A program made the translations under genes and the position numbers. The notes under the pieces are model-generated. The model was not told where the DNA came from. It did no database searches and was given only the letters and a program-made list of their open reading frames with translations. Positions 1,900-58,530 of a DNA stretch of 63,256 nt are shown here, one piece after another. The number at the start of each line of letters is the position of its first letter. Within the stretch, counting starts at the first letter, position 1. The stretch comes from a virus (taxonomy: Duplodnaviria; Caudoviricetes): the IMG/VR virus record IMGVR_UViG_3300038621_000255, positions 1 to 63,256 of that record. One strand, written 5' to 3'.

Positions 1900-2210
1900 A
1901 TCTCCAAAATTCGCTCTGTGTGGAGATTCTGGGAATATTATAGGACTGTAATAAAAATTTTATTACGGGTCGGAACCGACAGAACTGACCCAAATTCCTT
2001 TTAAATCCATACGTACAGGGAATTTTGGCTTTATTACGCCTTTTATTATACCGGGCTTTTATCGGATCGCTGTATTCCCTCAACCATGCAGATTACAGCG
2101 TTTATTACAGTATTACTATATAGGGTAATAAACGCTGTAATATTTGCTGTAATCTCCTGTACGACTGGGTTTGAGCCTCGTTTTGTCTGGTTAATGTATG
2201 TTGTGTTACA
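1900..2210. repeat. ATTAC/GTAAT-rich palindromic locus A
   Basis: Shares CTCTGTGTGGAGATT, CGGATCGCTGTA..CCCTCAACCATGCAGATT and TTTGCTGTAATCTCC with loci at 18.9, 43.4 and 58 kb. Confidence 0.85.
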
Positions 2211-2226
2211 AGAAATACTTCTCTCA

Positions 2227-2403
2227 TCGGTTAGGGGCAAGATCGATAGAGGGTAGAATGCGGGGGTCGGTTACCCACCTTAAACCCAGGCACAGTAAGG
2301 GTTTCAGCGATTGATAGTTTACGAGGGGGTAAAGACCCATAATCGCTGAGATGCCGTAACCATATTTCAGCTCCCTAACTGACCATAGAGTTAGTACATT
2401 TTT
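2227..2403 (+). repeat. Degenerate copy of ~210-bp cassette repeat
   Basis: CCCACCTTAAACCCAG..AAGGGTTTCAGCGATTGATAG..ACGAGGGGGTAAAGACCCATAATCGCTGAGATGCC matches copies at 58549, 59461, 60549. Confidence 0.85.
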
Positions 2404-2473
2404 GCGTGCTGCCCTTAATCGACCACAGCAAATCCCTGGTGTTAAGGTATTTGAAATAAATTCTGGAAACCCA

Positions 2474-2503
2474 TTGACAGTTAACAGTAGGGTATGCCAC
2501 TAT
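2474..2503 (+). promoter_or_regulatory. Sigma70-type promoter
   Basis: TTGACA-N18-CACTAT with TG extension; related promoters at 23952, 43977, 47124, 50657, 58809, 59720, 60804 (+) and 676, 55430 (-). Confidence 0.7.
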
Positions 2504-2545
2504 AAAAATAGTTCTTCAAAAGGAAAGCAACCGGAGGCAAAAGCC

Positions 2546-3121
2546 ATGCCCGCATACAAAAGTTACCATAGCGATCCCTTTGAAAATCATGAGGATTCCT
2601 TAGAAGAGAACCTGGGTAATTACCAAAAAGTAAAACCCATAGAAACTCAGGTTATGGGGATTTCCCTTCAGGGGAAAGTGTATATCCCATTTAAAGAAAA
2701 TGCCCTCCAAGGTCAAACACCAAAAACAGTGTGGAAAATACCGTTTGAAGAAGAGGTAGAACTGCCCGAGACTGGCTACCTTGCAAGACTAGACACTTCT
2801 GGAATTATCAATAAGGTAGAAGGGTTAGAAAATGCTCTTTTAGCTACCCAAAGATTGGAAGAAATTGTTTTCCAGTCGGGGATGATTTTCAAAGTAGCCC
2901 ATAAAGAATTGATTAAAAAGGGAATAAATGTAGACAAGGTAGTAATTGACTTCCAAGGGCAGAACCCCTTAAACCTTAAAGAGGGGATCCGTGTTTACCC
3001 TTCAGACCTTAACATGTTGGTTAAATCCAACAGTAATTGGGTCGAATTAGCAAATGGGAAGTATATATACATGTCTTCCATGGAAGATGCCGAAGAGAAA
3101 GTAGAAAAGTTTTTCGGTTAA
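2546..3121 (+). CDS. Hypothetical early protein
   Basis: GGAGGCAA RBS before ATG 2546, downstream of promoter. Confidence 0.75.
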   Translation: MPAYKSYHSDPFENHEDSLEENLGNYQKVKPIETQVMGISLQGKVYIPFKENALQGQTPKTVWKIPFEEEVELPETGYLARLDTSGIINKVEGLENALLATQRLEEIVFQSGMIFKVAHKELIKKGINVDKVVIDFQGQNPLNLKEGIRVYPSDLNMLVKSNSNWVELANGKYIYMSSMEDAEEKVEKFFG

Positions 3122-3137
3122 TTTTCAGTTGAAACCA

Positions 3138-3165
3138 CGACCTGGGCAAGTCGTTAAACTGCCCA
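3138..3165 (+). ncRNA. Putative H-type pseudoknot in 5' leader, copy 1
   Basis: CGAC/GTCG and TGGGCA/TGCCCA interleaved stems; repeated at 44226 and 55022. Confidence 0.6.
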
Positions 3166-3192
3166 ACAAGAGTAAACCGACAGGAGGCAATT

Positions 3193-3429
3193 ATGCTACA
3201 AATTCTCAAAAAACAAGCGATCGAACCAGACCGTGACGTTTATCTAGTCGGAAACATCACTACACCTCGCCGCGATCGCGTCAGGGTATACAGCACTGGG
3301 GATACCCACAACTGCAGCTGCGATCGCTACAAGGATCACGGACATTGTTTTCACATCCGTTTTATTCGTGACTTTGAATCCGGTTTGGATGGGAGCTGTT
3401 GCCCCATTGATGCCGAGGATGAGTTCTAA
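3193..3429 (+). CDS. SWIM zinc-finger protein
   Basis: CSC-x7-CFH motif; GGAGG RBS. Confidence 0.7.
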   Translation: MLQILKKQAIEPDRDVYLVGNITTPRRDRVRVYSTGDTHNCSCDRYKDHGHCFHIRFIRDFESGLDGSCCPIDAEDEF

Positions 3430-3447
3430 TTAATTGCAGACCCCAGT

Positions 3448-3483
3448 AAAAAGCCCCCTCAGCTTCCACTGAGGGGGCTTTTT
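3448..3483. terminator. Bidirectional intrinsic terminator
   Basis: AAAAAGCCCCCTCAG...CTGAGGGGGCTTTTT between convergent genes. Confidence 0.8.
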
Positions 3484-4123
3484 ATTTTGCTAGTTCTAGG
3501 GCTTGGTGGTACTCGTGCGCGTGCTGCAGGAACCCCTGCCAGTACCGTTTCAGGTCTTTCCCCTCTACCTCCCAAACTTGGGATTCTTTAGAGGGTAGCA
3601 GGGTGATTATCTTTGCTTTACCTAGTTTCCACCCATAGAGCCAATTACAAGCGCCCAGGTAGGCTGCTGCTTGGTGGAAATCGCGTTGCATTTGGTACTT
3701 GGTGCGCGGCTTCTGGGTGGTTTTCCAATCTAATAAACACCACTCCTCACCTTGGATTTTGGCAACCAAGTCGGGTGTACCTGCGAAGCCGTGTTCTGGA
3801 TGAAATACGCTACTTTCCAATAGTGCGATCGCCTCTACCTTCTCTAGGTAGGGAAGCGCGGCGTAATAATAGGGGCTGTTAGCCAGGGTAAGTTTTGGAT
3901 GTCTCCCCTCTAGTTTTGCTTGGATTGCCCTATGTATTTCGATGCCACGCGCCAATCTACTTTCGCGATCGCATTTATTTTGTGGGTTTCGATTATTGAA
4001 AGGGGAAGGGAGAGCAGCGCTCAGAATTGCCGATACGCTAGGGTATCTCCCAACGTTGTTCCCTCGCGTGTCGGTTATAAGATAATGCCTCCTTTCCCCC
4101 TCATTGATTCGCTTTACCTTAAT
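3482..4123 (-). CDS. PD-(D/E)XK exonuclease
   Basis: RGIEIH, AGTPD..LLDWKT, QAAAY motifs; frame stays open upstream of TTG 3955 through YPSVSAIL, start uncertain (possible ATT 4123). Confidence 0.8.
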   Translation of the reverse strand: MKVKRINEGERRHYLITDTRGNNVGRYPSVSAILSAALPSPFNNRNPQNKCDRESRLARGIEIHRAIQAKLEGRHPKLTLANSPYYYAALPYLEKVEAIALLESSVFHPEHGFAGTPDLVAKIQGEEWCLLDWKTTQKPRTKYQMQRDFHQAAAYLGACNWLYGWKLGKAKIITLLPSKESQVWEVEGKDLKRYWQGFLQHAHEYHQALELAK

Positions 4124-4556
4124 ATAACCCCCTTTGTGTTTTCCGCACCGTGTAAGTCCTTCTGTCCTCTTCGTAGTAAACCCCTCCTAAAATTATCTGA
4201 CGGGTTACTTTCCCTTTTTGGTTGGTGTTTATCGCTTGGTAAATGTGCTGATCCTTTTCTACCGTCTTGACTTTTTGGAAGTCGCACCCCGTTATTGCTT
4301 CGGCTTCTTGTATCGTAGTCCCTGTTTCTAAGTTTTCAATCGATAGGGTTTTGATTCGTTCGTACATTGAAGCTGTTAACGTGGTTTGGCATACGTTAAT
4401 TGTTACAACTCTGCCATCTAATTCGTATCGATACTTTTCTTGCTTTTCCTGCTTCTCCGCATTCACGTTCGATGATGACGTGTTGCTATAACAGGTCGCC
4501 AACAAGGGGGTCAGTGCCACGCTTGCAGCTATCAAAAAATTTTTCCATTTAGCCAT
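4119..4556 (-). CDS. Secreted/lipoprotein-like hypothetical
   Basis: Basic-hydrophobic N-terminus followed by Cys. Confidence 0.6.
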   Translation of the reverse strand: MAKWKNFLIAASVALTPLLATCYSNTSSSNVNAEKQEKQEKYRYELDGRVVTINVCQTTLTASMYERIKTLSIENLETGTTIQEAEAITGCDFQKVKTVEKDQHIYQAINTNQKGKVTRQIILGGVYYEEDRRTYTVRKTQRGLY

Positions 4557-4557
4557 T

Positions 4558-4857
4558 TTACTTTTCCTCTTTAAGTTTGATTTCGAGTTCTTGTACTTTT
4601 CTGTTCAGTTGCCTGTTTTCCCTTGATAGACCTTCTAGTTGGGAATGCAGGGAAGATACTTCCTTTTGCAGCCCTTCTTTTTCCCAGTAGATATTTTGCA
4701 AGGGATTCTCCCGGCGGATCACCCACTCGTATAGGGCTTCCCTTACGAGAGAAGAAACCACAAGGGAATACTCTTGGGCGAATTTTTCCAACCGATACCA
4801 CAACCTAGTTGGTATCGTTATGTGCAGTTCTTTATTGAAATTTTCTGATTTGGACAT
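4558..4857 (-). CDS. Ribbon-helix-helix-like regulator with coiled coil
   Basis: LHITIP..L..FA...SSLVREAL pattern. Confidence 0.55.
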   Translation of the reverse strand: MSKSENFNKELHITIPTRLWYRLEKFAQEYSLVVSSLVREALYEWVIRRENPLQNIYWEKEGLQKEVSSLHSQLEGLSRENRQLNRKVQELEIKLKEEK

Positions 4858-4945
4858 AAACGATCCACCTCTATCTCTATTCTAGCTCCTTAACCCGGGA
4901 ATTGATAGGGAAAATTACAATAGAATTGATGGTATTTGGCTTTTT

Positions 4946-5692
4946 ATGGCGATTCCAAGAAGTATTATCAATCAACCCAACGAGTGGGCGAACTTCTTTA
5001 GAGGGAAAACAGAAGTACCCACCCAAGCTTGGCGCGATCTGAATCAAGAGGAATATGGTTTTTCTTTCGCGATTGCAGGCGTAACCAATTTACAATTCTT
5101 AAAAGAGGTAAGAGAACTTCTGCAAGAGGAGCTTGCCAAGCCCGAGGGTAGTTCGTTTCGGCAATTTCTAAAGAATTTCGACAAAGCGATCGCACGCAGG
5201 GGATGGGCTGGCGACAAGCCCTGGCGGCGGAAACTAATTTGGCATCAGAATACTCGGTCGGCTTATGCCCAGGGACGGTATCAACAGCAGGTACGCCCGG
5301 AGAGCTTACGGTTGCAGGGTGCTTGGCGTTGGGCACACAGGTGGCCGAAAAACCCAAGACCCGACCATATTGCCTTAGATGGGAAGCTCTATCCCCCTGG
5401 AACAACCGATTTTTCGGGGCAATCGTACCCACCCAATGGCTATTTTTTCTGCCATTGCGCGATTGTTACCGAATCCGCAGGTTCGGTGCGACGTAAGGGA
5501 TTTTCACCAATGAGTCCAGTGCAAAATCCCCCCAAACACCTACCGGGGCAAGACCCAGAGAGCCGCGATCGCATTGCCAATCAAATCGCCGAGAAGTTGC
5601 CACCCGATCTTAGGCAAAGTTTCACCCAATGGCGTGAGAAACGCCAACAATTCCTAGATAGGATTATGCAGAATATTGATGAGGAGGGTTAA
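4946..5692 (+). CDS. Head morphogenesis protein (Mu gpF / SPP1 gp7-like)
   Basis: FAIAG, NTRSAYAQGR, RPDHIALDG, PPNG..CHC motifs. Confidence 0.85.
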   Translation: MAIPRSIINQPNEWANFFRGKTEVPTQAWRDLNQEEYGFSFAIAGVTNLQFLKEVRELLQEELAKPEGSSFRQFLKNFDKAIARRGWAGDKPWRRKLIWHQNTRSAYAQGRYQQQVRPESLRLQGAWRWAHRWPKNPRPDHIALDGKLYPPGTTDFSGQSYPPNGYFFCHCAIVTESAGSVRRKGFSPMSPVQNPPKHLPGQDPESRDRIANQIAEKLPPDLRQSFTQWREKRQQFLDRIMQNIDEEG

Positions 5693-6088
5693 ATGGCATT
5701 CTCAGTAAGAATCAGCCGCGATGGTTTTGAAGAGCTAATCAATGCTATCGAAGATACCCAGCCCCTATTTCAAGCAATAGGACAAATGGCGGACCGGCGA
5801 CTGCAGGATACACAATCCGCAGGGCAGGATCCCTACGGAAGAACATGGGAACCATTAGCTACGGGGGAACCTAGCTTTTTGCGGCAAACTGGGGATCTGG
5901 AGAATTCCCGAAATTGGGAAGCCGGACAAGGCTACGCCCGTATAGGCTTTGGGGCACATTATGCAAAATTCCATCAAACCGGGACTTCTAAAATGCCTCG
6001 CCGCCGGTTGGTTCCCGACCGGGGACTACCTGGTGATTGGGACCAAGAAATTTCAGATTTAGCAGAGGAGTGGGTAAATGCAATTTAA
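5693..6088 (+). CDS. Virion morphogenesis protein (Mu gpG-like)
   Basis: DPYG..WEPL, LRQTGDL, YAKFHQTG..MPRR motifs. Confidence 0.8.
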   Translation: MAFSVRISRDGFEELINAIEDTQPLFQAIGQMADRRLQDTQSAGQDPYGRTWEPLATGEPSFLRQTGDLENSRNWEAGQGYARIGFGAHYAKFHQTGTSKMPRRRLVPDRGLPGDWDQEISDLAEEWVNAI

Positions 6089-7214
6089 TCTATTATCAGT
6101 TGGGCAAAAACAAGCGAACAGCGGGCAATCTATAGACATATCGCCAAGCCTTCTACAAGAGATCGTAGAGAGTTTCAAAGAGAGTAAGGGGCGCTTCCTT
6201 CCCCCTGTCATTGAAGGGCACCAAGGAGGGGATGACAGGGAACGTGGCGAGGGAATTGACGCACTTATACGAAATCTAGAATTTGATGGTCAATTTCTGA
6301 AAGGAGAATTCGGGCAAATCCAGGATAGGTTCTGGGAAGCGGTAAAGGGGGAAGGTGGCAATTTTACCCCTTACCTATCTTCACGAATCCTACCCCCCGA
6401 CCATCCCTACAACCCAAACCCGGGAAAGTGGAGCTTGGGGCATGTTGCCCGGGTAGGGCTTCCTGGCGATCCCCAATTGGGCTATCTATTTAATCAAAAG
6501 CAAGAGGATGGATCCATCTTGGCGCCGAATTATCCTTTAGATTTCGCCGAAGAAGGGCAAAAAGAAGGCAGCAACGAGGATCCAGGCGATAGAATAGAGG
6601 ACGATACTACTATAGCGATTAATATGCCAACAGAGTATCAACAACAGGAACAAAACTCCCAGCAACAACAAGAGGAAAAGCAGGATGAGGGGCAACAACA
6701 GCAATCCCAATCTGCCGACCTTTCCTCTTTGATGGAAAAAGTGAACAACCTTCTGCAACAGCAGGAGCAGCAACAACAAAAGTTATTAGATCGGATTTCT
6801 AAATTAGAAGAAAACGCCGCGCAACCTATCACCGATAGTAAACACGAACAGCAGCAACAACAGCAGGAGCAAAAGGAAGAGGCAGAAGCCCCTGATTTTT
6901 CCCAATTACAGGACCAGATCGAAACGCAGAATCGTGCAATCTGGTCTATGAGATTGTCGCCTTATTTCCAAAGCCAAGACCGGCTAAACAAAGAAATTAA
7001 TTACCTTTCCGGTCTGAACAAGGCTGCTAAAAATGGGATTGACTTTGGACAAGACCCCGTAGAATCCCGAATTCAAGAATTGATTGAATTTAATCAGGGA
7101 GTGCGGTTGGGGGAACCCGAGTCCCCTGCGGTTGACAAGGAAACCCAACAGGAAAAAAGCCCCTTGGAGAAAGCAAGGGAAGAAGCAAGGAAAAAGTATG
7201 AGGAGAAAAAGTAG
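6078..7214 (+). CDS. Prohead protease/scaffold
   Basis: PPVIEGH, YLS, LGHVA N-terminal domain, Q/E-rich scaffold region; precedes capsid genes. Confidence 0.7.
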   Translation: MQFNLLSVGQKQANSGQSIDISPSLLQEIVESFKESKGRFLPPVIEGHQGGDDRERGEGIDALIRNLEFDGQFLKGEFGQIQDRFWEAVKGEGGNFTPYLSSRILPPDHPYNPNPGKWSLGHVARVGLPGDPQLGYLFNQKQEDGSILAPNYPLDFAEEGQKEGSNEDPGDRIEDDTTIAINMPTEYQQQEQNSQQQQEEKQDEGQQQQSQSADLSSLMEKVNNLLQQQEQQQQKLLDRISKLEENAAQPITDSKHEQQQQQQEQKEEAEAPDFSQLQDQIETQNRAIWSMRLSPYFQSQDRLNKEINYLSGLNKAAKNGIDFGQDPVESRIQELIEFNQGVRLGEPESPAVDKETQQEKSPLEKAREEARKKYEEKK

Positions 7215-7703
7215 ATGACCCTAGATCTCTATTTAAAACAGGGCTATGAAGGTAGACCCGGCCTTCTAGATCCCACAGCCCGACAACAATCCGTAAGAAA
7301 TGAAAGCGGCTCAAGCATTGCCCCGGGTCGTTTGTGCGTGGTAACTGGCGGCTCGGATATTCCGACCGTAAAATTGATTTCAGCGTCAAGCGATCACCCC
7401 TTGGGAATAACTCTGAATACCACAATGGCTGGTGACATCGATGTTGCCCTGCCTGACGCTGATGTTGGGACGGTGCTTTACCGGGGTCCGATTTATGTAG
7501 TACCCGAGGTAGCTGTCGATCCTTCCGACCCGGTATACGTACGCCACACATCCCACAGCTCACCGGGCACTTACGATGCGATTGGGCGATTCAGGAACGA
7601 TGCTGATACGGATGGATCGGACACTGCAATGGAATTACCGAAGTGCCGATGGATTAGCGCATCAGCGGCGGGTGGTCTAGCAATTTTAGAATTCGCACTG
7701 TAA
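7215..7703 (+). CDS. Capsid decoration protein
   Basis: Position between scaffold and capsid; G-x-IYV..V...DPVYVR pattern. Confidence 0.65.
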   Translation: MTLDLYLKQGYEGRPGLLDPTARQQSVRNESGSSIAPGRLCVVTGGSDIPTVKLISASSDHPLGITLNTTMAGDIDVALPDADVGTVLYRGPIYVVPEVAVDPSDPVYVRHTSHSSPGTYDAIGRFRNDADTDGSDTAMELPKCRWISASAAGGLAILEFAL

Positions 7704-7726
7704 TAGATAATAAGTAAGGAGAATTA

Positions 7727-8677: not shown

Positions 8678-8692
8678 TATAGGTGAGCAGAA

Positions 8693-9314: not shown

Positions 9315-9317
9315 AGG

Positions 9318-18864: not shown

Positions 18865-18899
18865 TGTTCGTGGTGTTACAACGCCTCTGCCAGATCTAC

Positions 18900-19200
18900 C
18901 TAAAATCCCCTCTGTGTGGAGATTACAGCAAATATTACAGGATATATTACCCGATCTAGTAATACTGTAATAAAATCCAAAATCTGCATGGTTGAGGGAT
19001 TACAGCGATCCGCATAAACCCGGTTCGTAATACCCTAGAATAAACCCCATTTTGCTCCCTAATCTCCTGTACGTGGTGGTTCCAGCGTTTTTACCTTCTA
19101 AAATTGCTGGAATATTATATTTATTACAGTGGTTGTAGCCCCTCTAAAATCTCCTGTGTGTGGAGATTATGGGTTATTCTATTTTTTATTACGGGTAGTT
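18900..19200. repeat. ATTAC-rich locus B containing left arm (18910-19013) of 104-bp inverted repeat
   Basis: 18910-19013 is the exact reverse complement of 43693-43796. Confidence 0.92.
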
Positions 19201-19532: not shown

Positions 19533-20042
19533 ATGCAGACACGTGTTGGCACTCCTGCATTGGATGAAAGAGACCGCAGGGCACAAAAACTGCGATTTCG
19601 TTCCCAAAAAAGGGAACGAAGGAAAAGGGCCTTAGAAAGCGAACCCCCTTTGGTTTCTCGTTCCCGGATGGGGGTCATGGATTCTATACGAAAAGAGCGA
19701 CCCATTCTTTTGTCTGATGTACTTTGTGGGGAAGATTTATTTCCCGATCTCCCCAGCTCGTACAAGAAACTTCTCCGAGTTTCCTCCGAAACTGGATTCC
19801 GTGTTACTACGCTTCGGAATTGGGTTTCGGGTAGGTTCTTCCCAAGGTTGAACATAGAGGTGTTGAGCGCACTTCTATACTACTTTGGTGTGGATTTCGA
19901 TTGTTTCGTTGAGGCTTTGCAAAATAGCCGAAAAGTACAGAATTTGCGTCCATTTGATCCAAATCGGAGGGCAAAGCACCCCCCTCTATCGCAAGCTTTT
20001 GTGGATAGGTTGGAGACAGAACGCCAGAAACTCAAGGGATAA
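19533..20042 (+). CDS. Xre-like HTH DNA-binding protein
   Basis: VSSETGFRVTTLRNWVSGRFFPRL helix-turn-helix pattern. Confidence 0.7.
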   Translation: MQTRVGTPALDERDRRAQKLRFRSQKRERRKRALESEPPLVSRSRMGVMDSIRKERPILLSDVLCGEDLFPDLPSSYKKLLRVSSETGFRVTTLRNWVSGRFFPRLNIEVLSALLYYFGVDFDCFVEALQNSRKVQNLRPFDPNRRAKHPPLSQAFVDRLETERQKLKG

Positions 20043-20135: not shown

Positions 20136-23100
20136 ATGGATTTACATAAAAGTCAATCATTTACAAAAACCCCATTTAAATTACCCCGTGGACAAGGCAA
20201 GCGGGGCGGCACCTGCCCGGTTTGCCAACGAAAAGACAATTGCCTAATTTCGGATCGCCTTGATTGGGCGATTTGTTGGAAGCATTCAAGGAATAGAGGG
20301 GAATGGGTTTCCACCCCCGTAGGTTGGCGATATGTGAAGGAAGCCAAACACAATATGGGTGGCTTCCACGTGTTGGTATTGCAGGGGGTAGGAAACCAGT
20401 TGAAGGTAGGTAAGGATTTATTCCCCACTTACCCCCAGCGCGTGCCGTCCCAACGGAAGAAGCAAAGGAAAGATAGTAAGAAATCGCCAAACTTCCCCAA
20501 GTTGGAAGATAGTGAAATTAGTCGGGCATATAGATTGATCGCCGCCCAGAAGGGCATCCACAAAAAAGATAGAGAAAGGTTGCAGTTGCGAGGGTTGCAA
20601 CCTTGGCAAATCGAAGATTGGGCGAGTAAAGGATTCTATTCCCATGTTAAAAATCAACTTGTATCAGGGGTTTCACATCCCTTACCGGGGTTGAGTTCCG
20701 ATCTTTCTCGTACCGTAGGATCTACAGGTCTGTTTATCCCTGCCCAGAGAGCCAACGGTAAGATTGTGGGCGGGCAAATTTGGGCAAGACAAGGATCGGC
20801 GAAGTATCTTTACTTGAAAGGTGGTTGCCAGGTACGGAAGGAAAATAATCGGAAAGGAAGGGAGAGCGCCCCCTTGCAAACCGTGGCGTTCCCTTCAGTT
20901 CGTAAGAACGCCCCAAAGTATCAACAAGCCCATTTAAATTTGCAGGCAACCTCGCCCCGCAAAGGGCAGGGGACATCTAATGCGATCGCGTCCCTTACTG
21001 ATTCCCTCGGCGTGGAAGTAGCAAGGACTTCCAAGGAATTCCAGCGAGAGGATCACCCTGGTAGCCACTATCAAGCTTTGATTTTGGGGTTGCAACTCGC
21101 TTTAGAAGTTGGAGTGGGAAACCTAGAAATTCTCGGGCTTGGTGGTATTCTAAAGCATTTCCAAGGGGAGTCCAGCCATGGACATCACTATCCCCACGCT
21201 TGCTACCCGGTGCGGTCGCAACTCCAATTGCTGCACAAGATTGCTTTATACTTACTGGATAAGCAGGGGCAGTACCACCTCTACAGTGAATCCCCCTCCT
21301 TGGGTGCTGGAAAGGACACGCATCCAGGAGAACGCTACTTTGATACCAAAGAGGTGTGGCTAACTGAGGGGTTACTCAAACCCTGGCTTACCGCTAGTTT
21401 TTGGAATCGGATTGTGATCGGGACGGTGGGCGGCACTCACGCTAGCGCAATCGATTTCGAGCCGAACTTAAAAACTTTAGATCCGGAAATAATGCGGTTT
21501 TTACCCGATGCTGGTGCAGTTGAAAACCGCTCGCAGGTGCCCTTTGTAACCAAAGAATCCCTAGAGGTTGTGCAAAATTTGGGTTACCCCTTGGAGATTG
21601 GTTGGTGGGGGCAGCAATCGAAACCCCGAAATGACCAAGAAAAACTGGTGAAAGGGGACATCGACGAAATATCCTTGGATACGGAAATCCAATGGATCTC
21701 ACCACAGGAATTTTGGCAAAAGCACCCAAAAGCCACACAAAAGGCTCTATTTGGGGAACCATTCAAGCCGGGACTGAAAAAGGTAGATTCCCCCGTATCT
21801 CACCCACGTCCACACCAACCAAAGCTCCAGCCCTTCCGCTTCTTCCGCGAAGATTATAGTCGAAAAGAGCTTGTGCAGCAGTTTTTGTCGCAGGGGCATA
21901 AGTTTATCTTCGATGCCTCGCCCACCGGAAGCGGCAAAACCCACGATTTCCGCGAGTGGGTACCCGAAGATTTTGGTGCCTCCCTGTTGCTACACGTTAC
22001 CGAAGATGTATTTTTAGATGATGCCCAAGATGGTTGGTCTGGTTATCGTGGGCGCGACCGTGGGCGCGTACGCCGCGCGGAAGACGAACGAATTGTGAAG
22101 GCTGAAAAAGATACCCCAAAGGAGGATCTTTACAAGCCCTCAAACTGCGAGAGGATGGACCTGGTTGATTTTCTTTACGCCCATAATGAAACCCCCTCGG
22201 AGAAGGGTGAGCCGTGCGCTACTTGTCCTTTTGAGAGTACCTGCCAGAAAGAACCAGGGTGGTATCAGCACGATCGCGCTCAGGCTTTGAAAAATCGGAA
22301 AATTCGCCTGCACCCACAAGCCCTAGATGAGGAGCTAATCCGCGATAAGCGGGGCAAGCAGTGGGTGAAGCTGAAAGATAAATCCCAAGCCGAATCCGGG
22401 ACCGTGATAATCGCAGACGATGTATCGCCCTTCATTCAACAGATTTCAATTGATGCAAGAGAAGTTAACGCTTTTCTAGCAAAATACTCTTATCGCCTAG
22501 AGGAGGATGCACCCTCCCTTCGGGCAATCTTATGTAAACTGCGGGAACTTTTGGAGGTCTCAGGGGATAGGACTGTCTATCACTCCGAAATTACCTCCCA
22601 TCTGCCCGAATTCAGGGATAGTGTGGAAGAAATCCAGGATTTGTTTGAGCTGCAGCAAAGAGAGATAATGCAGGCTTGGATGTCAGGAGAGGGGAAAAAA
22701 GAGGCAAGTCCAAAATGGTTGGGGCAATTCCTAGAAGCCCTGCAGGATGGAGGGTTCTTCCACGTTTACCAAGGCACCTTGAATATCACCACGAAGAACC
22801 AACGCTTTATCCGGGCGTTAAATAGCCAGGGAGTTCGAGCGGTAATATTTGCGGATGCCACTGGAGACAGCCGTTACCTAGCAAGGTGGCTAGGTTTGGA
22901 TAGCGAAATTCCTGCAATCGCAGAAGAAATACCAGAGCAGAACAAAGCCCATGTTCGTATTCAGCAGCTTACTGGATTGGGCGATCTGGGGCATTCCCGG
23001 AGTTATCGCCAACAGGAAGCAGTTGCTCAGCTCAAAGAGAGCTTGGAACTTCTGTATCCCGAATACGGTACGATTGACCTGAAAAAAAGCAAGGGAAGGG

Positions 23101-23996
23101 CTAACCAGCTACAGTTAAACTGGCACTCTTCCAGCCGGGGGAGCAATGCCGCCAAGGCTAAAGCGGGGCTGCTCCTAATTGGCACGCCGCGCCCCAACTT
23201 AGCTTCGGTGGTAGCGGAATATACCCTTCTAACAGGGAAGGAACCGAATCTAGAGGAGCAGATTAGCTCCTACCCGATGCGGTGGCAGAATACGGATAGC
23301 CATTGGTGCAAGAATGTGCGGGAATCAAAAGATACAGCCTTTTCAGAGTATTACTACCAACGTACTTTAAATGAAATTGAGCAGGGAATTGGGCGGCTGC
23401 GAGGGAACCGCCGCGCTGGGGAAGAGCTAGAGGTTTTGGTTGTAAACGAGTTTCCTTTGGATAGGGATTGTGAGGTATTTGATATCTGGGATTGGTTAGA
23501 GAGTAGAGTGGAAAATCGCTCAGTGGAAGTGCCCAAGGGTTGTAGCTCCTTGGCGGCTTTAAGCGATCGCGAGATTGAACAAGCGGCGCGTGCTTGCTAT
23601 CTGAATTCGGGAAAAATTAGACAATCCGATGTAGCTGAATTGCTAGGTGCAAGCCAGCCATTGATTGCCAAATATTTTGCCCAGCCAGGTAAGTGTTGGA
23701 AGTCTTTCAAGGAAGAAATCGCGGCGAGTAGCGACCGTGGGGAGGTCTCCCAGCAGGAAGAATCTACAGAGGAGATACAGCAAGGCGATTGCGTAGAGGT
23801 ACAACACCAAAGTGGGAAGTACAGAGGCAAAGCTGTGGTACTTCGGAGAGATGGCGATAATTGCCTAATTGAGTTTGCCGATGGCTCCCTATCCTCTATA
23901 CCTATCCCATTGGGGCTTATGAGGAAAGTTGAGGTTAATTTTAAAAAGTCGTTGACAAATAAAGATTGGCTAGGCTATAGTAACAATAGAGCTTGA
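20136..23996 (+). CDS. Multidomain primase-helicase / replication protein
   Basis: N-terminal CPVC..C..C Zn finger, Toprim-like WLTEG..KP / PDAG / GDIDE, Walker A SPTGSGKT, QGIGRLR, C-terminal HTH. Confidence 0.8.
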   Translation: MDLHKSQSFTKTPFKLPRGQGKRGGTCPVCQRKDNCLISDRLDWAICWKHSRNRGEWVSTPVGWRYVKEAKHNMGGFHVLVLQGVGNQLKVGKDLFPTYPQRVPSQRKKQRKDSKKSPNFPKLEDSEISRAYRLIAAQKGIHKKDRERLQLRGLQPWQIEDWASKGFYSHVKNQLVSGVSHPLPGLSSDLSRTVGSTGLFIPAQRANGKIVGGQIWARQGSAKYLYLKGGCQVRKENNRKGRESAPLQTVAFPSVRKNAPKYQQAHLNLQATSPRKGQGTSNAIASLTDSLGVEVARTSKEFQREDHPGSHYQALILGLQLALEVGVGNLEILGLGGILKHFQGESSHGHHYPHACYPVRSQLQLLHKIALYLLDKQGQYHLYSESPSLGAGKDTHPGERYFDTKEVWLTEGLLKPWLTASFWNRIVIGTVGGTHASAIDFEPNLKTLDPEIMRFLPDAGAVENRSQVPFVTKESLEVVQNLGYPLEIGWWGQQSKPRNDQEKLVKGDIDEISLDTEIQWISPQEFWQKHPKATQKALFGEPFKPGLKKVDSPVSHPRPHQPKLQPFRFFREDYSRKELVQQFLSQGHKFIFDASPTGSGKTHDFREWVPEDFGASLLLHVTEDVFLDDAQDGWSGYRGRDRGRVRRAEDERIVKAEKDTPKEDLYKPSNCERMDLVDFLYAHNETPSEKGEPCATCPFESTCQKEPGWYQHDRAQALKNRKIRLHPQALDEELIRDKRGKQWVKLKDKSQAESGTVIIADDVSPFIQQISIDAREVNAFLAKYSYRLEEDAPSLRAILCKLRELLEVSGDRTVYHSEITSHLPEFRDSVEEIQDLFELQQREIMQAWMSGEGKKEASPKWLGQFLEALQDGGFFHVYQGTLNITTKNQRFIRALNSQGVRAVIFADATGDSRYLARWLGLDSEIPAIAEEIPEQNKAHVRIQQLTGLGDLGHSRSYRQQEAVAQLKESLELLYPEYGTIDLKKSKGRANQLQLNWHSSSRGSNAAKAKAGLLLIGTPRPNLASVVAEYTLLTGKEPNLEEQISSYPMRWQNTDSHWCKNVRESKDTAFSEYYYQRTLNEIEQGIGRLRGNRRAGEELEVLVVNEFPLDRDCEVFDIWDWLESRVENRSVEVPKGCSSLAALSDREIEQAARACYLNSGKIRQSDVAELLGASQPLIAKYFAQPGKCWKSFKEEIAASSDRGEVSQQEESTEEIQQGDCVEVQHQSGKYRGKAVVLRRDGDNCLIEFADGSLSSIPIPLGLMRKVEVNFKKSLTNKDWLGYSNNRA

Positions 23997-43100: not shown

Positions 43101-43102
43101 GG

Positions 43103-43404: not shown

Positions 43405-43845
43405 GCCGCTGTAATAATTAGGCATAAATCGGTGTAATCTCCACCAACAGGGAATTATACGGTTTTGGATAGAATTTAGCCAGATTTTTATTACAGCTTT
43501 TATTATAGCCCCATAATATGCCTACAATCTCCACACAGAGCAGATCTCAGCAGGTCTTTCTCCGGTCGGGATAAAGCCATAATAAAAATTATATTACAGT
43601 CCTTCACCCCTGCAAAATCCCTAAAATCTCCTGTACGTCTGGATTCCAGGCTAATTACAAGGGGTCGCAGCAAAAATTACAACCGGGTCTACGCGGATCG
43701 CTGTAATCCCTCAACCATGCAGATTTTGGATTTTATTACAGTATTACTAGATCGGGTAATATATCCTGTAATATTTGCTGTAATCTCCACACAGAGCGAA
43801 TTTTGACCCTATTTGAATATACTATTGTATACTGTGTTACGAAAT
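43405..43845. repeat. ATTAC-rich locus C containing right arm (43693-43796) of 104-bp inverted repeat
   Basis: Exact reverse complement of 18910-19013; 43485-43540 near-inverted to 57994-58050. Confidence 0.92.
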
Positions 43846-52086: not shown

Positions 52087-52626
52087 ATGCAAGTAGTCGA
52101 TGCCGAGCGTGTTGGTTCTGGTGAAAGCAAGGCCAGCACGTCTGCAAATAATAGCACCCAAAGTGCGCTTAAAAGTTTCTTCAAGAATAAACGCACTATC
52201 AAAGCCGTCCTCATTGTGAGCCTATCCTTTTTACTAGGTTTGGTTTGGGTCTTGAATTGTCAACCATACTTAAGTGCTGCTGAAAATCTATGGGGTATAG
52301 CAGCCTCAAGAAATACGAACAGCGGCGTGATAGGAAACCTTGTCTTTGCTTCAGTTATAACCCAATGGTTGTGGACACTCTTTGGAATCTTCCTGTGCGT
52401 TGGGTTGCAGTTGCTCGAATTCCTGCCAGCTCTAAATTGGAATATTAGCAGGAAAAAGGCACGCGTAGCTCGTATGGCTAGCTATGTGGTTGACCTAATT
52501 GTGCTTTGGTCGGTCTACCCAATTTCTAGCCTTCCCCTCAATTGGTGGCACTTGATTCTAATGGTTTTAGCTTTGATAGCTGTTGAGATGGTGTTTTATC
52601 CCCTTGCACTTATTAAAGATTCTTAA
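52087..52626 (+). CDS. Multi-pass membrane protein
   Basis: About four hydrophobic segments; AGGAGG RBS. Confidence 0.75.
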   Translation: MQVVDAERVGSGESKASTSANNSTQSALKSFFKNKRTIKAVLIVSLSFLLGLVWVLNCQPYLSAAENLWGIAASRNTNSGVIGNLVFASVITQWLWTLFGIFLCVGLQLLEFLPALNWNISRKKARVARMASYVVDLIVLWSVYPISSLPLNWWHLILMVLALIAVEMVFYPLALIKDS

Positions 52627-52636
52627 GGAGATTCTC

Positions 52637-55021: not shown

Positions 55022-55049
55022 TAGGCACTTTAACGACTTGCCCAGGTCG
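55022..55049 (-). ncRNA. Putative pseudoknot, copy 3
   Basis: Minus strand CGACCTGGGCAAGTCGTTAAAGTGCCTA. Confidence 0.6.
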
Positions 55050-55062
55050 TGGCAGGAAGTTA

Positions 55063-55368
55063 TTATCTAACCCAGTAGTACTCCCACCCATTTTGGGAAT
55101 AGGCGTATTTCTTATCTAGTTCCACTATTAGAGCATTTTCCGCTCTAATGTGCAGGATATCGCGGCCCTGTACCTTATGGGCTTCTTGGTAAAAGCCTTT
55201 TTCGGAAGGGGTGCCCTTTTGTAAGATATACGTCAAAATCTCCCACTCGCCTCTTATACTCTTACGGAACTCCGGGTGGCGGAACAACAGTTCCGGGTTG
55301 TTGTTCACTCGGCGAAGGTGCTGTAACAAGGCTTTCTTAATTTGCTCAGTTGATTGGTCGGTCTTCAT
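55063..55368 (-). CDS. Hypothetical early protein
   Basis: CCGGAGGCAA RBS, TTGACA promoter at 55430-55435. Confidence 0.7.
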   Translation of the reverse strand: MKTDQSTEQIKKALLQHLRRVNNNPELLFRHPEFRKSIRGEWEILTYILQKGTPSEKGFYQEAHKVQGRDILHIRAENALIVELDKKYAYSQNGWEYYWVR

Positions 55369-55490
55369 GGTTTTTGCCTCCGGTGTTACTTAATTAACTA
55401 TTCTTACTATGGCACACCCTTTTGGGAACTGTCAACCAGTTTGTAGAATTATTCCCTAAAATCCTATAAAACAACCATCTAGACTGGTTC

Positions 55491-57047
55491 CTAGAATTTT
55501 TCCTTGGCTTGTTTTCTGGCGGCGAGGGTGGTAGATTTAACCGGTGTGCGCATTGACCGTAGAGGAATTCGGCGAGTTTCTGCCAAAAACTGGGACAAAG
55601 CATCAACCTGATCGTCGTGCAAACTCTTTGGAAAATTCGCTAGTTCCTGCTCGAATTCCTCCAACCAGGGTGCTTGCTTGGGTAACCAAACGCGACCTTG
55701 TTCGATAAACCCAGCTTGAATTGCCAACCGGGATACCTTGTCTTTGGTGGGCTTAGAGGGTACTAGAGTGGCGCGTACTTGGGATGCGCATTCCTGCTGC
55801 AAGGCATACCCGGTAGCGGCCTGCTCGCAAATTATCGTGGCTGGTTCCCACTCTCTAGCCTTGCTAAGGAAATAGCGTTTCCCCTCTGGATAGTCGAGGC
55901 GCTTGCGAAATGCCTCCAATAAGTAAAAATGCCCTTGGGATACACCGAAGGTCAAGCAAACCCAAGGATCGTTGATTTCCTGCCCCTTGTGGGCAGTGTC
56001 CCAACTCTGCACCACTGTATCCCAATGTTTGGGCAAATCCTTACTTGTATACCGGGGGAAATCACCAATATTTATCAAGCCGCCGCCCAGGGGCATGGGG
56101 GATTGCTGGTGTCGGGCAGCAAACAACCAGTTACCTAGCACCAATCGGGCTTCTTGCTCTTCCTCTTCTCCGAAGCGCTCGGGGTGTAGGTAGTCGCCGG
56201 GGGTGCGGATAGTGCGATCGCCCGATAAGGGATATTCGATAGCTTCTTCCTCTTGGGCAACCGTGGGCAGTTTTAGCCAATTGTATCGATCCCTTGCATT
56301 TTCCAGGATCCAGCCCGATATATCGCCAACGTGCGTGCGCTGTTGCACTACCAGGATTGGCGCTTGTGGGTGGTTTTTCCGGGTGGCAGAAAAATCTTGA
56401 AATCTATGCAACGCTCGGTGGCGTTGCACGCCGCTTTCCGGTCGGGGTGAGTCCGGATCGTCAGCTTCGGGGTTATTTGGATCGTCGAAAATCAGTAGAT
56501 CCCCTCCAAGCCCCGTGACTGAGCCATCTAGACCCCGCGAAACCATAGCGCCTTGGTATTCGTTCTCGAACTCGCTAATCCGGTTGGCAGCTTGCACCAA
56601 CCGCAGCCCCTGCGACCAAAACCCCTGGTAGAATTCACTCTGGATTAATTTCCGTCGCTGTTGGTTATGACCGTTGGCGAGTGAGGCGGAATAAGATAGA
56701 CACAAAAACCGCAGGGAAGGGTAACGCAACCAGCACCAACAAGGGAAAACAATCGAAACCAAGGTGGTTTTTAAATGCCTTGGGGGCATATTTAAGAGGA
56801 GATTGCGGTGGCGTTCGTCCAATTCCCCTTCCAATAGCGCTTCCAAATATTCGCAGATTAAATCTAGAAACCAACCCCACTGTAGCTCCTGCCCGGGGGT
56901 GAGAACTTCCCAAGATTGCGCCAGAAATTGGGATAGGGAGGGTATAGGTTTGGGCGTACGTTGGATTGATTTCTTATGCTTTTTTGCTTTCTTTGCCCGC
57001 TTGCGGTTTAATTCTGTTCCCCCATAAGCAAGGCGACGGTCAAGCAT
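55491..57047 (-). CDS. Terminase large subunit
   Basis: NMPPRHLKT, LLIFDDP, QSWDTA, HDDQVDA. Confidence 0.93.
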   Translation of the reverse strand: MLDRRLAYGGTELNRKRAKKAKKHKKSIQRTPKPIPSLSQFLAQSWEVLTPGQELQWGWFLDLICEYLEALLEGELDERHRNLLLNMPPRHLKTTLVSIVFPCWCWLRYPSLRFLCLSYSASLANGHNQQRRKLIQSEFYQGFWSQGLRLVQAANRISEFENEYQGAMVSRGLDGSVTGLGGDLLIFDDPNNPEADDPDSPRPESGVQRHRALHRFQDFSATRKNHPQAPILVVQQRTHVGDISGWILENARDRYNWLKLPTVAQEEEAIEYPLSGDRTIRTPGDYLHPERFGEEEEQEARLVLGNWLFAARHQQSPMPLGGGLINIGDFPRYTSKDLPKHWDTVVQSWDTAHKGQEINDPWVCLTFGVSQGHFYLLEAFRKRLDYPEGKRYFLSKAREWEPATIICEQAATGYALQQECASQVRATLVPSKPTKDKVSRLAIQAGFIEQGRVWLPKQAPWLEEFEQELANFPKSLHDDQVDALSQFLAETRRIPLRSMRTPVKSTTLAARKQAKEKF

Positions 57048-57672
57048 CTTCTTCTTCGTTGGTCGTAGCTTCCGTGTCTATATCCCCATCCTCTCCTTCT
57101 TCTGGTGGTTTCGCTGGTTTTAATTCTTCTTGCTCGTAGGGGTCTAGGATCTCATAGCCCATCGCCTCTAGGGCACTACTTGCCCACTGGGCGTTGAGGA
57201 GATGGTGCAGCCCTTGTGATTGTCGTTCGCCTTGGATTGCGGTGTGCAAACTCTGCACTGCAATGTCAAACTTTTTCCAGTCACGAGTTGGAATGGCTTT
57301 TACAGGGTTTTCGCCTCTCTCTTTTGCTTCTTTTTGTAACTCAATAAAGCTATCGATGCAGCCTTCTGCGGCTTGCCTTGCTTTCTTGTAGCTATTTTGG
57401 TGAGCATCCGCCAGCTCTTCTGCTTTTTTAACTAGGGCTTGCGACCTTTGTTTCTTGAGCTTTTTAATTTCTTCAATCCAGAGGCGATAGAGTTCCGGAT
57501 CCTGTCCCAATTTTTGCCGCCAGCTATTTATTGAAGAGCGTGCAACCCCGAACTGGTGGGAAGTCTGGGCATCGCTCTGGAATTCGGCAAAAGCTAATAT
57601 TGTCGCCTTACCCTGTGGCGACGGACTGCGACCGTTACTGCTTTGGCTGTCGCCGTTTCTTCCTTTCTTCAA
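57040..57672 (-). CDS. Terminase small subunit
   Basis: N-terminal HTH (FGVARSSINSW), directly upstream of large subunit. Confidence 0.7.
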   Translation of the reverse strand: MKKGRNGDSQSSNGRSPSPQGKATILAFAEFQSDAQTSHQFGVARSSINSWRQKLGQDPELYRLWIEEIKKLKKQRSQALVKKAEELADAHQNSYKKARQAAEGCIDSFIELQKEAKERGENPVKAIPTRDWKKFDIAVQSLHTAIQGERQSQGLHHLLNAQWASSALEAMGYEILDPYEQEELKPAKPPEEGEDGDIDTEATTNEEEDA

Positions 57673-57674
57673 CT

Positions 57675-57863
57675 CTATCTTCCCTTTCCTTTCTGCTTCC
57701 TGCTTAAACTCGCATTTACAGCCCGCAGCTGTGCCAGGGCTTTTTCCCAGCTTTGATGCCCACCACCATCGATGGGGCGATCGCTACTTTGCCCACGGGC
57801 TATTCTTCCGCTCGGCTCGACCAACCTGTATTTTCCCCGACGCTTGCTAATGCTTACTGGCAT
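57675..57863 (-). CDS. Small basic phage protein
   Basis: GH.S.EKA.AQLRA pattern; coupled to terminase genes. Confidence 0.6.
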   Translation of the reverse strand: MPVSISKRRGKYRLVEPSGRIARGQSSDRPIDGGGHQSWEKALAQLRAVNASLSRKQKGKGR

Positions 57864-57949
57864 TTGGGCAAACCATAATTCCTTCCCCCTAAAGTAGCAG
57901 AAAATCAGACCGACCGCAACATGTAATCATCGGTAGGTACCAAGCAACC

Positions 57950-58530
57950 ACCATAATATTTTTATTACAGGGGTACGAAAACGCTGTAATCTTCTGTGTG
58001 TGGAGATTGTAGGTATATTATGGGGGCTGTAATAAAAACTGTAATAAAAACGCAGCATAAAAATATTACAGTGCGCGATCGCAACCAGAATATTTTTATT
58101 ACAGAAGGTGCGGAAACGCTGTAATCTCCTATGCGACTGAATTCTAGGTAAATTATAAGGTCGTGATGGCATGGACTGTAATAAAAATAATATTACACCG
58201 TAATAAAACGCTGTAATCTCCTGTGTGCGGAGATTACAGGCTCGTAACGAGGTCGTAATAAAATAGCGAGCGCAGGGGCATAATTACGCAGCTGTAATAA
58301 TAACCAAAACCCGCTTTGTGTGGAGATTACAGCACTTATAATATCCAAAATGTAACACACTATACTTACCCCTTTTATAATCGACCTCAAATCCCCTGTG
58401 TGTGGAGATTACAGCAAATATTATAGGGTATACGCACAGATCTAGTAATACCGTAATAAATGCTGTAATCTCCTGTGCGACTGGATTTGAGGTCGATTTT
58501 TAGAGTTGGTTGTATAACGTGTTACATTTT
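57950..58530. repeat. ATTAC-rich locus D with ~185-bp imperfect palindrome (58347-58530)
   Basis: CTGTAATCTCC-N7-GGAGATTACAG boxes; nested arms AAAATGTAACAC/GTGTTACATTTT and AATCGACCTCAAATCC/GGATTTGAGGTCGATT. Confidence 0.9.

Follow-up and report, generated by a model that had tools for sequence, protein, structure and literature searches.

Four homologous iteron arrays dispersed over a predicted cyanophage genome of 63 kb: candidate binding sites of a plasmid-type replication protein

Introduction

What role can be played by four stretches of non-coding DNA that are assembled from the same short words and lie dispersed over one phage genome? The question is raised by IMGVR_UViG_3300038621_000255, a record of the IMG/VR collection (Duplodnaviria; Caudoviricetes) that was analysed over its whole length of 63,256 nucleotides (nt) and is called the window below. 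The record is classed as linear, its completeness is estimated at 83%, and all findings on the loci come from this one uncultivated contig. An original prediction, made from the letters alone, had described four non-coding loci built from palindromic boxes and ATTAC/GTAAT pentamers, and had proposed a distributed cis-acting system of protein binding.

The evidence gathered here points best, with a probability put at roughly 0.4, to the loci being arrays of double-stranded binding sites for a Rep-like protein with a C-terminal helix-turn-helix (HTH), where they would act as replication origins or as origin-enhancing sites. The main rival, placed behind this reading, is that they are operators. 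Iteron arrays are in themselves an already known kind of element. What is unusual is to find four homologous modular arrays over a 63-kilobase (kb) phage genome, together with a second iteron system alongside them and a plasmid-type replication protein in a phage.

Composition of the four loci

The loci are marked by one heptamer. CTGTAAT/ATTACAG was found 38 times in the window against 6.2 +/- 2.4 times in 100 dinucleotide-preserving shuffles of it (shuffle maximum 13), and 31 of these 38 copies fall inside the loci (1,734 nt, 2.7% of the window; about 1.0 expected). They are spread as 5, 5, 7 and 14 over loci 1 to 4, and none was observed in the remaining 3,076 nt of non-coding DNA. A longer form, GGAGATTACAG, has nine exact copies, all of them in the loci; when one mismatch is allowed, it gives 14 matches, 12 of which are in the loci (0.96 expected). 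The pentamer GTAAT/ATTAC (50 of 135 copies) and GGAGATT/AATCTCC (18 of 35) are likewise concentrated there, and the guanine plus cytosine content is 37-39% against 46.6% for the window. The unit site is best read as the heptamer CTGTAAT, with GGAGATTACAG as its long form.

The phasing of 12 base pairs (bp) that had been claimed for ATTAC at 18922, 18934 and 18946 is exact, and 12 nt is also the most frequent same-strand spacing of RTAAT within the loci (12 cases). With 5-14 exact heptamers per locus and 50 pentamers overall, the loci contain the three or more short repeated sites in non-coding DNA that are looked for in iteron origins. The claim that all four are built from the same parts was confirmed by the placement of the heptamers and by a module of 95-116 nt, M1, that is common to all of them (Table 1).

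M1 runs from a box through GGAGATTACAGC, AAAT, ATTACAG, N5, ATTAC, N8, GTAAT, N3 and GTAAT to a closing CTGTAAT or box, with three sites in one direction and two or three reversed. In locus 1, it takes the form of opposed iteron triplets (ATTACAG-N5-ATTACAG-N5-ATTAC, N8, GTAAT-N3-GTAAT-N7-GTAAT), and the copy in locus 4 has a degenerate third left iteron and closes on the right with an inverted long iteron. M2, a second module of 44-54 nt, occurs in loci 1, 3 and 4, and locus 2 has part of it. Its components are a box, an AT-rich hexamer and TTATTACAG repeats, direct or inverted. The orientation of M1 alternates along the map (-, +, -, +), and both the order and the orientation of the modules vary between loci, as would be anticipated for binding-site arrays.

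An AT-rich palindrome of 19-21 bp, of the form GTAAT-N9-ATTAC, also occurs once per locus; in locus 1 it is the 19-nt GTAATAAAA-A-TTTTATTAC ending at 1966. At an outer border of each locus stands a TGTAACAC/GTGTTACA element, of which five of the eight copies in the window are at the loci. In locus 4, M1 is enclosed in a far longer palindrome with 49-nt arms that are 80% complementary and with a single-stranded fold of -45.9 kcal/mol (z = -10.8).

The boxes had been described as palindromes of the type TAATCTCC-N7-GGAGATTA, and this description holds for one arm only. The GGAGATT arm is identical in all 15 boxes. The opposite arm pairs with it at 7/7 positions in two boxes (19148, 58215), at 6/7 in three, at 5/7 in three and at 4/7 or fewer in seven, so that five of the 15 are good palindromes and most are half-boxes. 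No compensatory changes between the arms were found among the 15. In locus 4 the boxes follow each other at 135, 92, 102, 82 and 68 nt in mixed orientations, and because of this irregularity a CRISPR array was rejected.

Table 1. Positions in the window of the four loci, their modules, the candidate binding proteins, and other genes and repeats (aa, amino acids)
Feature	Position	Strand	Description
Locus 1	1899..2215		order M2(+), palindrome P, M1(-), half-box, GTGTTACA border
Locus 2	18868..19195		order GTGTTACA border, M1(+), half-box, partial M2(+)
Locus 3	43409..43845		order M2(-), half-box, M1(-), GTGTTAC border
Locus 4	57962..58531		largest; order M2(+), several extra boxes, M1(+) within 186-nt palindrome
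M1 of locus 1	2063..2157	-	88% identical to copies of loci 2 and 3 over 95 nt
M1 of locus 2	18910..19025	+	98% identical, over 116 nt, to inverted copy of locus 3
M1 of locus 3	43681..43796	-	
M1 of locus 4	58384..58460	+	87% identical to copy of locus 2 over 77 nt
M2 of locus 1	1913..1956	+	box, AT-rich -10-like hexamer, start of 19-nt palindrome
Partial M2 of locus 2	19144..19195	+	includes perfect box at 19148
M2 of locus 3	43485..43541	-	93% identical to copy of locus 4 over 54 nt
M2 of locus 4	57997..58050	+	
186-nt palindrome	58346..58531		near-perfect; surrounds M1 of locus 4; outer arms end in TGTAACAC / GTGTTACA
Rep-like protein, candidate binder	20136..23996	+	1286 aa; starts 0.94 kb downstream of locus 2, same operon
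XRE/Cro-type HTH protein, alternative candidate binder	19533..20042	+	about 340 nt downstream of locus 2
Beta clamp	689-1876	-	Pfam/PHROG
SF2 helicase	25626-27239		rightward operon; Pfam/PHROG
PolA	27299-29191		rightward operon; Pfam/PHROG
dCMP deaminase and thymidylate-synthase-like protein	41099-43100	-	deaminase beside 492-aa protein with PterinBD-DUF4346 domain
Clamp loader	44904-47113		rightward operon from 44287; Pfam/PHROG
Dam-type methylase	48586-49470		Pfam/PHROG
205-nt repeat	2234-2438, 58564-58768, 59476-59680, 60560-60764		non-coding; 62-96% identical
Promoter-like block	2455-2513, 43958-44016, 60785-60843; 55392-55460 (minus)		repeated; TTGACA ... TATAAA/TATTCT
26-29-nt element	3135-3190, 44226-44281, 55024-55052 (inverted)		repeated; 96-97% between copies

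Conservation of short DNA words

Comparison of the four M1 copies shows no variation in 30 of the 36 motif columns and in 24 of the 49 remaining ones (Fisher P = 0.0014), a modest support as the motif columns (pentamers and box arms) were defined on one of the four copies. The better conservation of motif columns than of spacers, taken with arms that do not covary, indicates selection on short DNA sites. The selected units therefore appear to be short asymmetric DNA words and no hairpin. This favours binding of a protein to duplex DNA and disfavours a structured RNA or an obligatory cruciform.

A role as RNA elements, that is as structured small RNAs or as 5' hairpins with a stabilising or regulatory effect on the flanking mRNAs, is accordingly given very little credence. 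The boxes are able to form 7-bp hairpins and the palindrome of locus 4 folds strongly, but seven of the 15 boxes pair poorly, the changes in their arms do not compensate each other, and M1 of loci 2 and 3 folds barely above shuffles (z = -2.6 and -1.8). Many boxes are preceded at 8-9 nt, in one orientation, by a -10-like hexamer; however, terminator-like sites are no commoner in the loci than in shuffles and terminator-type T runs are lacking there. No locus matched a family of Rfam 15, which was run on the whole window at gathering score and on 57600-61100 up to E = 1, the latter giving chance microRNA rows only.

A stretch of 116-124 nt with sharp borders is 97-98% identical between loci 2 and 3 (18902-19025 against 43681-43804, 97% complementary over 124 nt), whereas the copies of loci 1 and 4 are 81-88% identical. 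This is read here as recent gene conversion between loci 2 and 3, laid over constraint. In parallel, public sequencing data were used in the form of Logan contigs of four DNA runs. These contigs break within the repeats; those of runs X1 and X3 cross locus 4, and that of X4 covers its left part to 58125, without differences. One contig of run X5 (depth 4.9) links 43793 in locus 3 to 58398 in locus 4 on opposite strands through 25 shared letters, and this joint is either a repeat recombinant or an assembly artefact.

Such exchange could mean that the loci are selfish or neutral repeats homogenised by recombination, devoid of site-specific function and at most hot spots of homologous recombination at which modules are shuffled or inverted. 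In line with this, module order and orientation differ between loci, gene order is scrambled, genes for an exonuclease and a Holliday-junction resolvase are present, and the X5 contig would be a product of the process, although it is a single contig of low depth. The reading is nonetheless considered unlikely, for the motif columns are preferentially conserved and the GGAGATT arm is intact in every box while the other arm drifts. In addition, every copy is intergenic and interrupts no gene, and neither terminal inverted repeats with target duplications nor a transposase was found.

Copies and relatives outside the window

Core patterns of the loci were searched in viral, genome and metagenome collections, from which the window's own genome records were excluded and in which the host genome is possibly absent. 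A degenerate 21-nt box pattern had no match in IMG/VR and two in non-cyanobacterial species-representative genomes, no more than expected by chance. With a 23-nt iteron pattern, seven AT-rich and unrelated viral matches came from IMG/VR, and the invariant 20-nt core of M1 gave two genome and eight JGI metagenome matches, none alignable to the window. In the same way, locus 2 had no blastn match among 50,697 phage records, and searches of the literature on phage intergenic repeats and iterons returned no description of such loci, which is not proof of absence.

A match to a host family of repetitive extragenic palindromes (REP) or miniature inverted-repeat transposable elements (MITE), which the original prediction had named as the outcome that would overturn it, thus did not appear in genomes, IMG/VR or JGI metagenomes, where the core patterns stay at chance level. 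This disfavours REP, its composite form the bacterial interspersed mosaic element (BIME), and MITE alike, and the same absence of outside copies tells against homogenised repeats. The loci have no conserved hairpin either; long inverted arms were observed at locus 4 only, with no flanking target duplication seen there.

Relatives of the phage itself are few. The large terminase subunit (TerL) has its closest relative, at 71% identity, on a contig of 2,560 nt; beyond it are two viral contigs (43% and 38%) and five genome loci at 25-38%, two of which are contigs of a Symploca metagenome-assembled genome (37-38%). No relative of the beta-clamp protein was found in IMG/VR, and none via the profiles of the Rep-like protein or of a 449-aa ATPase encoded further right, whose open reading frame (ORF) 52583-53932 has relatives at 63-65% on JGI contigs. 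A blastn search of the phage collection gave no close relative, and the top PolA match is 27% identical.

None of the four TerL-related contigs examined (L011, L012, L030 and L031) has an ATTAC-type array, and the two viral ones carry repeats of other kinds. The one at 43% (L011) has a CRISPR-like array at 5260-5960, with 9-10 repeats of about 36 nt at a period of 67-74 nt, and three tandem 36-nt palindromic repeats at 2646-2753. The one at 38% (L012) has nine dispersed single palindromes of about 26 nt (AAGATGTCTCAAATTTGAG..ATCTT type) at 716-17644 within 21 kb, a dispersed repeat of its own type that is organised unlike the loci of the window.

Genomic positions and regulatory readings

The loci had been placed at the junctions of gene modules, and indeed each takes up an intergenic gap, 375 nt or longer, that separates operons. 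Locus 1 separates the leftward beta-clamp gene from a rightward early-type unit. Locus 2 follows the end of the tape-measure gene (18864) and precedes a rightward operon (19239-29191) composed of an 81-aa ORF, the XRE-type HTH gene, the gene of the 1286-aa Rep-like protein, a superfamily 2 (SF2) helicase and PolA. Locus 3 has leftward genes of nucleotide metabolism (40578-43363) on one side and the rightward operon of the clamp loader on the other; locus 4 stands between the leftward ORF 57040-57672 with TerL and three rightward early-type cassettes, beyond which a reductase gene is found. The small ORFs that adjoin locus 2 (81 aa) and locus 3 (86 aa) are mutually unrelated and without family in Pfam and PHROG scans.

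These positions are also those of control regions, and operator arrays are a possible reading, if a more doubtful one than origins. A regulator, for instance the XRE/Cro-type protein whose gene adjoins locus 2, would bind the CTGTAAT half-sites and co-switch the flanking replication and nucleotide-metabolism operons together with the early cassettes. The flanking ORFs diverge at loci 1, 3 and 4, not at locus 2, and all four loci lie upstream of rightward units; yet no ATTAC array is present at four further divergent junctions (4.9, 32.84, 49.5 and 50.6-50.77 kb). Loci 1, 3 and 4 have strong sigma-70-like promoters, themselves repeated, some 150-350 nt to their right, and many iterons double as -10-like (TGTAAT, TATAAT, CATAAT) or -35-like (ATTACA) hexamers, but promoter-like sites inside loci 1 to 4 do not exceed the level of shuffles (2 against 2.3, 3 against 2.2, 3 against 2.5 and 5 against 3.1). 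The single GTAAT-N9-ATTAC palindrome of each locus resembles operators of dimeric HTH proteins, whereas 9-20 sites of mixed orientation per locus are far above known operators, and the HTH call on ORF 19533-20042 is weak (Pfam HTH_26, E = 0.046). Sites of the types NtcA (GTA-N8-TAC), RpaB HLR1, Pho-box and Fur-box were rejected by eye, without a dedicated scan, on their spacings (12, 8 and 13-14 nt against 10-11).

The neighbourhood of locus 4 brings in packaging as well. ORF 57040-57672, which comes before TerL and gave weak HTH matches, has this locus directly upstream, and the loci might be pac recognition sites of the small terminase subunit (TerS). As the ORF is only a putative TerS, and as four dispersed copies, three of them distant from the terminase genes, misfit a single pac site, this is the least probable of the readings considered.

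Candidate binding proteins

The binder favoured here is the Rep-like protein. Along its sequence an N-terminal Cys motif, an RNase H-like insert, a Toprim-like segment, a Walker-A helicase (GSGKT) and a C-terminal HTH-like stretch were recognised. Four cysteines are invariant in the helicase part of the family, and we take them to resemble those of XPD/DinG-type helicases. The RNase H-like insert, located between the N-terminal region and the Toprim-like part, is found in this protein and in three of six family members, and in relatives it matches Pfam RVT_3 at up to E = 2e-9.

Close homologues are few (eight proteins, the top one at 38% identity), and a profile search reached 2,649 cluster representatives at E <= 1e-3. 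By tblastn, the protein matched 100-102 plasmid records and no phage record, and the ten commonest among the genera listed were all cyanobacterial. As judged from these alignments, it is homologous to cyanobacterial plasmid replication proteins. The weakest plasmid matches are annotated as 'CyRepA1 family', PriCT-2, primase/polymerase or DEAD/DEAH helicase, and the 'CyRepA1 family' ORFs, which are matched by the Toprim-like part, align to only 13-18% of the 810-aa query segment.

Among 42 sampled relatives, 29 have no Pfam domain; the others show PriCT_2 (four), DUF3854 (one), RNase H-like RVT_3 (two), DUF3987 (one), a C-terminal HTH-type match (four) or a weak lipase match (one). Such variety suggests that the same helicase and C-terminal body has been joined to different primase heads, as is likewise seen in replication proteins of mobile elements. 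Residues 397-526 are 35% identical to a 1429-aa ORF of Symploca, and no iteron array was seen in the 7.5-kb stretch around the gene of that homologue.

Several further searches gave leads only. A protein-language-model look-up returned Toprim_3 and CyRepA1 neighbours, and Foldseek with the low-confidence model of a 1091-aa homologue (P0124; mean predicted local distance difference test score (pLDDT) 51.9, predicted template modelling score (pTM) 0.35) returned XPD/DinG helicases (E = 1e-6 to 1e-4, with low TM-scores) and RNase H. The profile gave nothing below E = 0.02 against PDB sequences, and an Atlas hint at Herpes_ori_bp, from 30% of the members of one neighbouring cluster, was not confirmed.

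The alternative candidate, the XRE/Cro-type protein, is grouped with Cro/XRE clusters by Atlas features (0.93) and structure rows, which are leads only. An HTH or ribbon-helix-helix gene precedes the homologue of the Rep-like gene on three of eight cyanobacterial plasmids inspected. Between the XRE-type gene and the Rep-like ORF's start is the least stable duplex of 60-100 nt in the window, 20082-20180. On a plasmid of Leptolyngbya sp. BL0902 (L041), words of the type TTCACGT/ACGTGAA occur in both orientations with a 12/24-nt period at 6420-6533, between the Rep homologue and parA, and six ACGTAT words lie upstream of parA at 7547-7743.

The loci as origins of replication

In the mechanism proposed, one sequence-specific phage protein would occupy the CTGTAAT sites on double-stranded DNA, most likely through the C-terminal HTH of the 1286-aa Toprim-like/helicase protein. 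The four loci would be loading sites of this Rep-like protein, and the opposed M1 sites around a short centre might allow two helicase assemblies to load head to head. Binding would start replication at all four loci, with forks departing in the direction of the divergent transcription units beside loci 1, 3 and 4. In favour of origins, loci 1 to 3 flank genes of replication and nucleotide metabolism (beta clamp; the operon of Rep and PolA; the thymidylate-synthase-like gene and the clamp loader), and the geometry of opposed pentamers and heptamers around a centre has been kept in every M1.

Part of the evidence goes the other way. The M1 centre is only 8 nt and not AT-rich, and in duplex stability only M1 of loci 2 and 3 is among the 12 least stable 60-nt windows. 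The gene of the Rep-like protein adjoins locus 2 and none of the other three, and four origins within 63 kb would be unusual. The protein itself has no Pfam or PHROG match, DUF3854 included, and its domain assignment is weak and indirect, with a model of pLDDT 51.9. A clustered short repeat lies within 2.5-3.5 kb of its homologue on only three of eight cyanobacterial plasmids. Finally, the origin of pSYSA, a cyanobacterial plasmid with a CyRepA1 protein, is described in PMC9978351 as transcript-primed, with a transcript and an antisense RNA exerting control, and the word 'iteron' has no occurrence in either CyRepA paper (PMC9978351, PMC10079941).

A further point is that the window has a second iteron cluster. 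At 50640-50990, 18 of the 108 GTAAC/GTTAC pentamers of the window are gathered in 351 nt, mostly as (A)GGTAAC(C). The cluster extends from a promoter-like TTGACA (about 50648) across a divergent intergenic region into the first 200 nt or so of ORF 50771-51589, whose 272-aa product has a weak HTH at residues 78-105; ORFs 51589-52032 and 52087-52626 and the 449-aa P-loop ORF follow downstream, the latter an ATPase of no nameable family. This resembles the classical layout of an origin inside the initiator gene, which makes the cluster at least as good an origin candidate and so a rival in this role to the four loci.

Both could coexist. In the fullest version of the origin reading, a virulent cyanophage would have four dispersed related origins, served by a self-loading primase-helicase of plasmid type and doubling as divergent control regions, beside a lambda-like iteron origin at 50.7 kb. 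This composite picture is rather improbable as a whole, somewhat more so than operator arrays.

A partitioning role must also be considered, as the plasmid-prophage N15 has four dispersed SopB sites. Centromere-like or anchoring sites, or sites of genome condensation, would agree with four dispersed loci that carry palindromic elements in control regions, with a 12-bp spacing that would allow a protein to wrap the DNA, and with a Rep-like protein of plasmid type. The gene content argues otherwise, being virulent-phage-like with its own replisome: no ParA, ParB, Sop, integrase or protelomerase was found among 73 ORFs searched against Pfam, an absence that is unproven as about 17% of the contig may be missing. 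Such a role is regarded as highly improbable. Site-specific recombination sites were rejected on similar grounds, no integrase, resolvase, invertase or transposase family being found among the 73 ORFs with Pfam or in the PHROG scan. Of what had first been proposed, a distributed cis-acting system of protein binding is retained as the best reading, given the conservation of motifs, the lack of covariation in the arms and the variable order of modules, while its centromere or anchor version and its recombination version are given up for want of such genes.

The phage and its other repeats

The window appears to derive from a myovirus-like cyanophage, as suggested by 34 copies of the octamer GCGATCGC (highly iterated palindrome 1, HIP1), by the distant TerL relatives on Symploca-binned contigs and by the seven public sequencing runs that hold the phage, all of them tidal-flat metagenomes. 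Pfam and PHROG scans of 66 ORFs found genes for a Mu-type head, a P2-type baseplate and tail, and TerL. The gene content looks virulent-phage-like, with the phage's own replisome. Gene order is scrambled, with portal, terminase and head genes far apart and replication genes splitting those of the baseplate. The pair of deaminase and thymidylate-synthase-like genes, together with the Dam-type methylase, is a hint of modified DNA bases.

A class II ribonucleotide reductase gene is split over both ends of the contig, its N-terminal part (61715-63256) closing the record and its C-terminal part (3-269) starting it, which indicates that the record is circularly permuted. It may thus lack little beyond part of this gene. 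A group I intron (62929-63178, 86 bits), the sole match at Rfam gathering score in the window, interrupts the reductase gene.

Three other repeat families were observed. Behind each copy of the 205-nt repeat come a sigma-70-like promoter (TTGACA-17-TATTAT type), itself repeated, and a small ORF, and the three copies at 58.5-60.9 kb form tandem cassettes. RNAalifold gave 49 pairs for this repeat, five with changes on both sides, from only four sequences, and Rfam had no match for it. In T4-type phages, the cassettes known as PeSL place an early promoter and a stem-loop around small ORFs, and these regulatory cassettes are a better fit to the 205-nt repeat with its promoter at 58.5-60.9 kb than to the ATTAC loci. 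The promoter-like block recurs rightward of loci 1 and 3 and ahead of the third cassette, and has one minus-strand copy in front of ORF 55063-55368. Two copies of the 26-29-nt element are followed by a repeated ribosome-binding region, and the element resembles a shared 5' leader of unrelated genes.

Significance

Should the Rep-like protein load at these loci, they would offer a compact and sequence-defined case of several homologous origins in a small viral genome. A large uncharacterised family of cyanobacterial plasmid and phage Rep proteins (2,649 representatives, almost without Pfam coverage) would then be tied to a recognisable DNA site, with benefits for the building of cyanobacterial vectors and for the prediction of origins in cyanophages and plasmids. 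If they are operators, a regulon of replication genes would be run from unusually large arrays. With a heptamer, a geometry and two candidate binders at hand, either reading is open to simple binding assays.

Comparison with known systems

Several systems are known in which one protein reads sites over many phage control regions, among them the P1 C1 operators, the mycobacteriophage stoperators and the SopB sites of N15. These are single or paired sites of 13-17 bp, whereas the window has 9-20 sites per locus in modules of about 100 nt. On the operator reading, the loci would be similar to lambda OL/OR or the dispersed C1 operators of P1, with larger arrays in the window. Like REP/BIME and MITE, the loci are repeated, partly palindromic and strictly intergenic DNA at module borders; they differ from them in having no outside copies, no conserved hairpin and no terminal inverted repeats or target duplications.

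On the side of replication, an initiator helicase reads inverted sets of short sites at ori and crr of P4 (alpha primase-helicase), at oriL and oriS of herpes simplex virus (HSV; UL9) and at the polyomavirus ori (large T antigen). These origins lie between divergent transcription units, and P4 and HSV have more than one cis locus per genome, but their sequences and protein families are unrelated to those of the window. Four origins in a 63-kb phage would recall a herpesvirus-like or archaeal-like multi-origin design.

Multiple origins in one phage genome are described for T4, where several lie at divergences of transcription, like loci 1, 3 and 4, and where evenly spaced 12-nt iterons of unknown role were reported at oriE (PMC3016281). 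The T4 origins have no common motif and mostly act by way of R-loops from promoters, whereas the loci of the window have shared modules. For the protein, the closest parallel is CyRepA1, the experimentally shown Rep of pSYSA and, like the candidate here, a large primase-like and helicase protein of cyanobacterial replicons (PMC9978351, PMC10079941). The pSYSA origin is located just upstream of the gene, behind a small ORF (PMC9978351); here, locus 2, the 81-aa ORF and the HTH gene precede the homologue.

For the architecture, the closest parallel is the origin of Staphylococcus aureus pathogenicity islands (SaPIs), in which 6-12 penta- or hexanucleotide iterons flank a central AT-rich region, at least two per side and in opposite directions (PMC9371898). 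That single ori is directly downstream of rep, whereas the window has four loci, the nearest of them upstream of the Rep-like gene. The window loci moreover have a centre of 8 nt that is not AT-rich, extra boxes and M2, and the helicase appears to be XPD/DinG-like and not of the SaPI Rep type. Nevertheless, M1 shares with the SaPI ori short iterons in two opposed sets around a centre, and locus 2, alone among the four, is like that ori in adjoining the rep-type gene. The SaPI iterons are read by the C-terminal winged helix of a self-loading Rep helicase that is fused to a primase in some SaPIs (PMC9371898), and a reader domain at the C-terminus of a helicase with a possible primase fusion is also what is predicted for the product of ORF 20136-23996.

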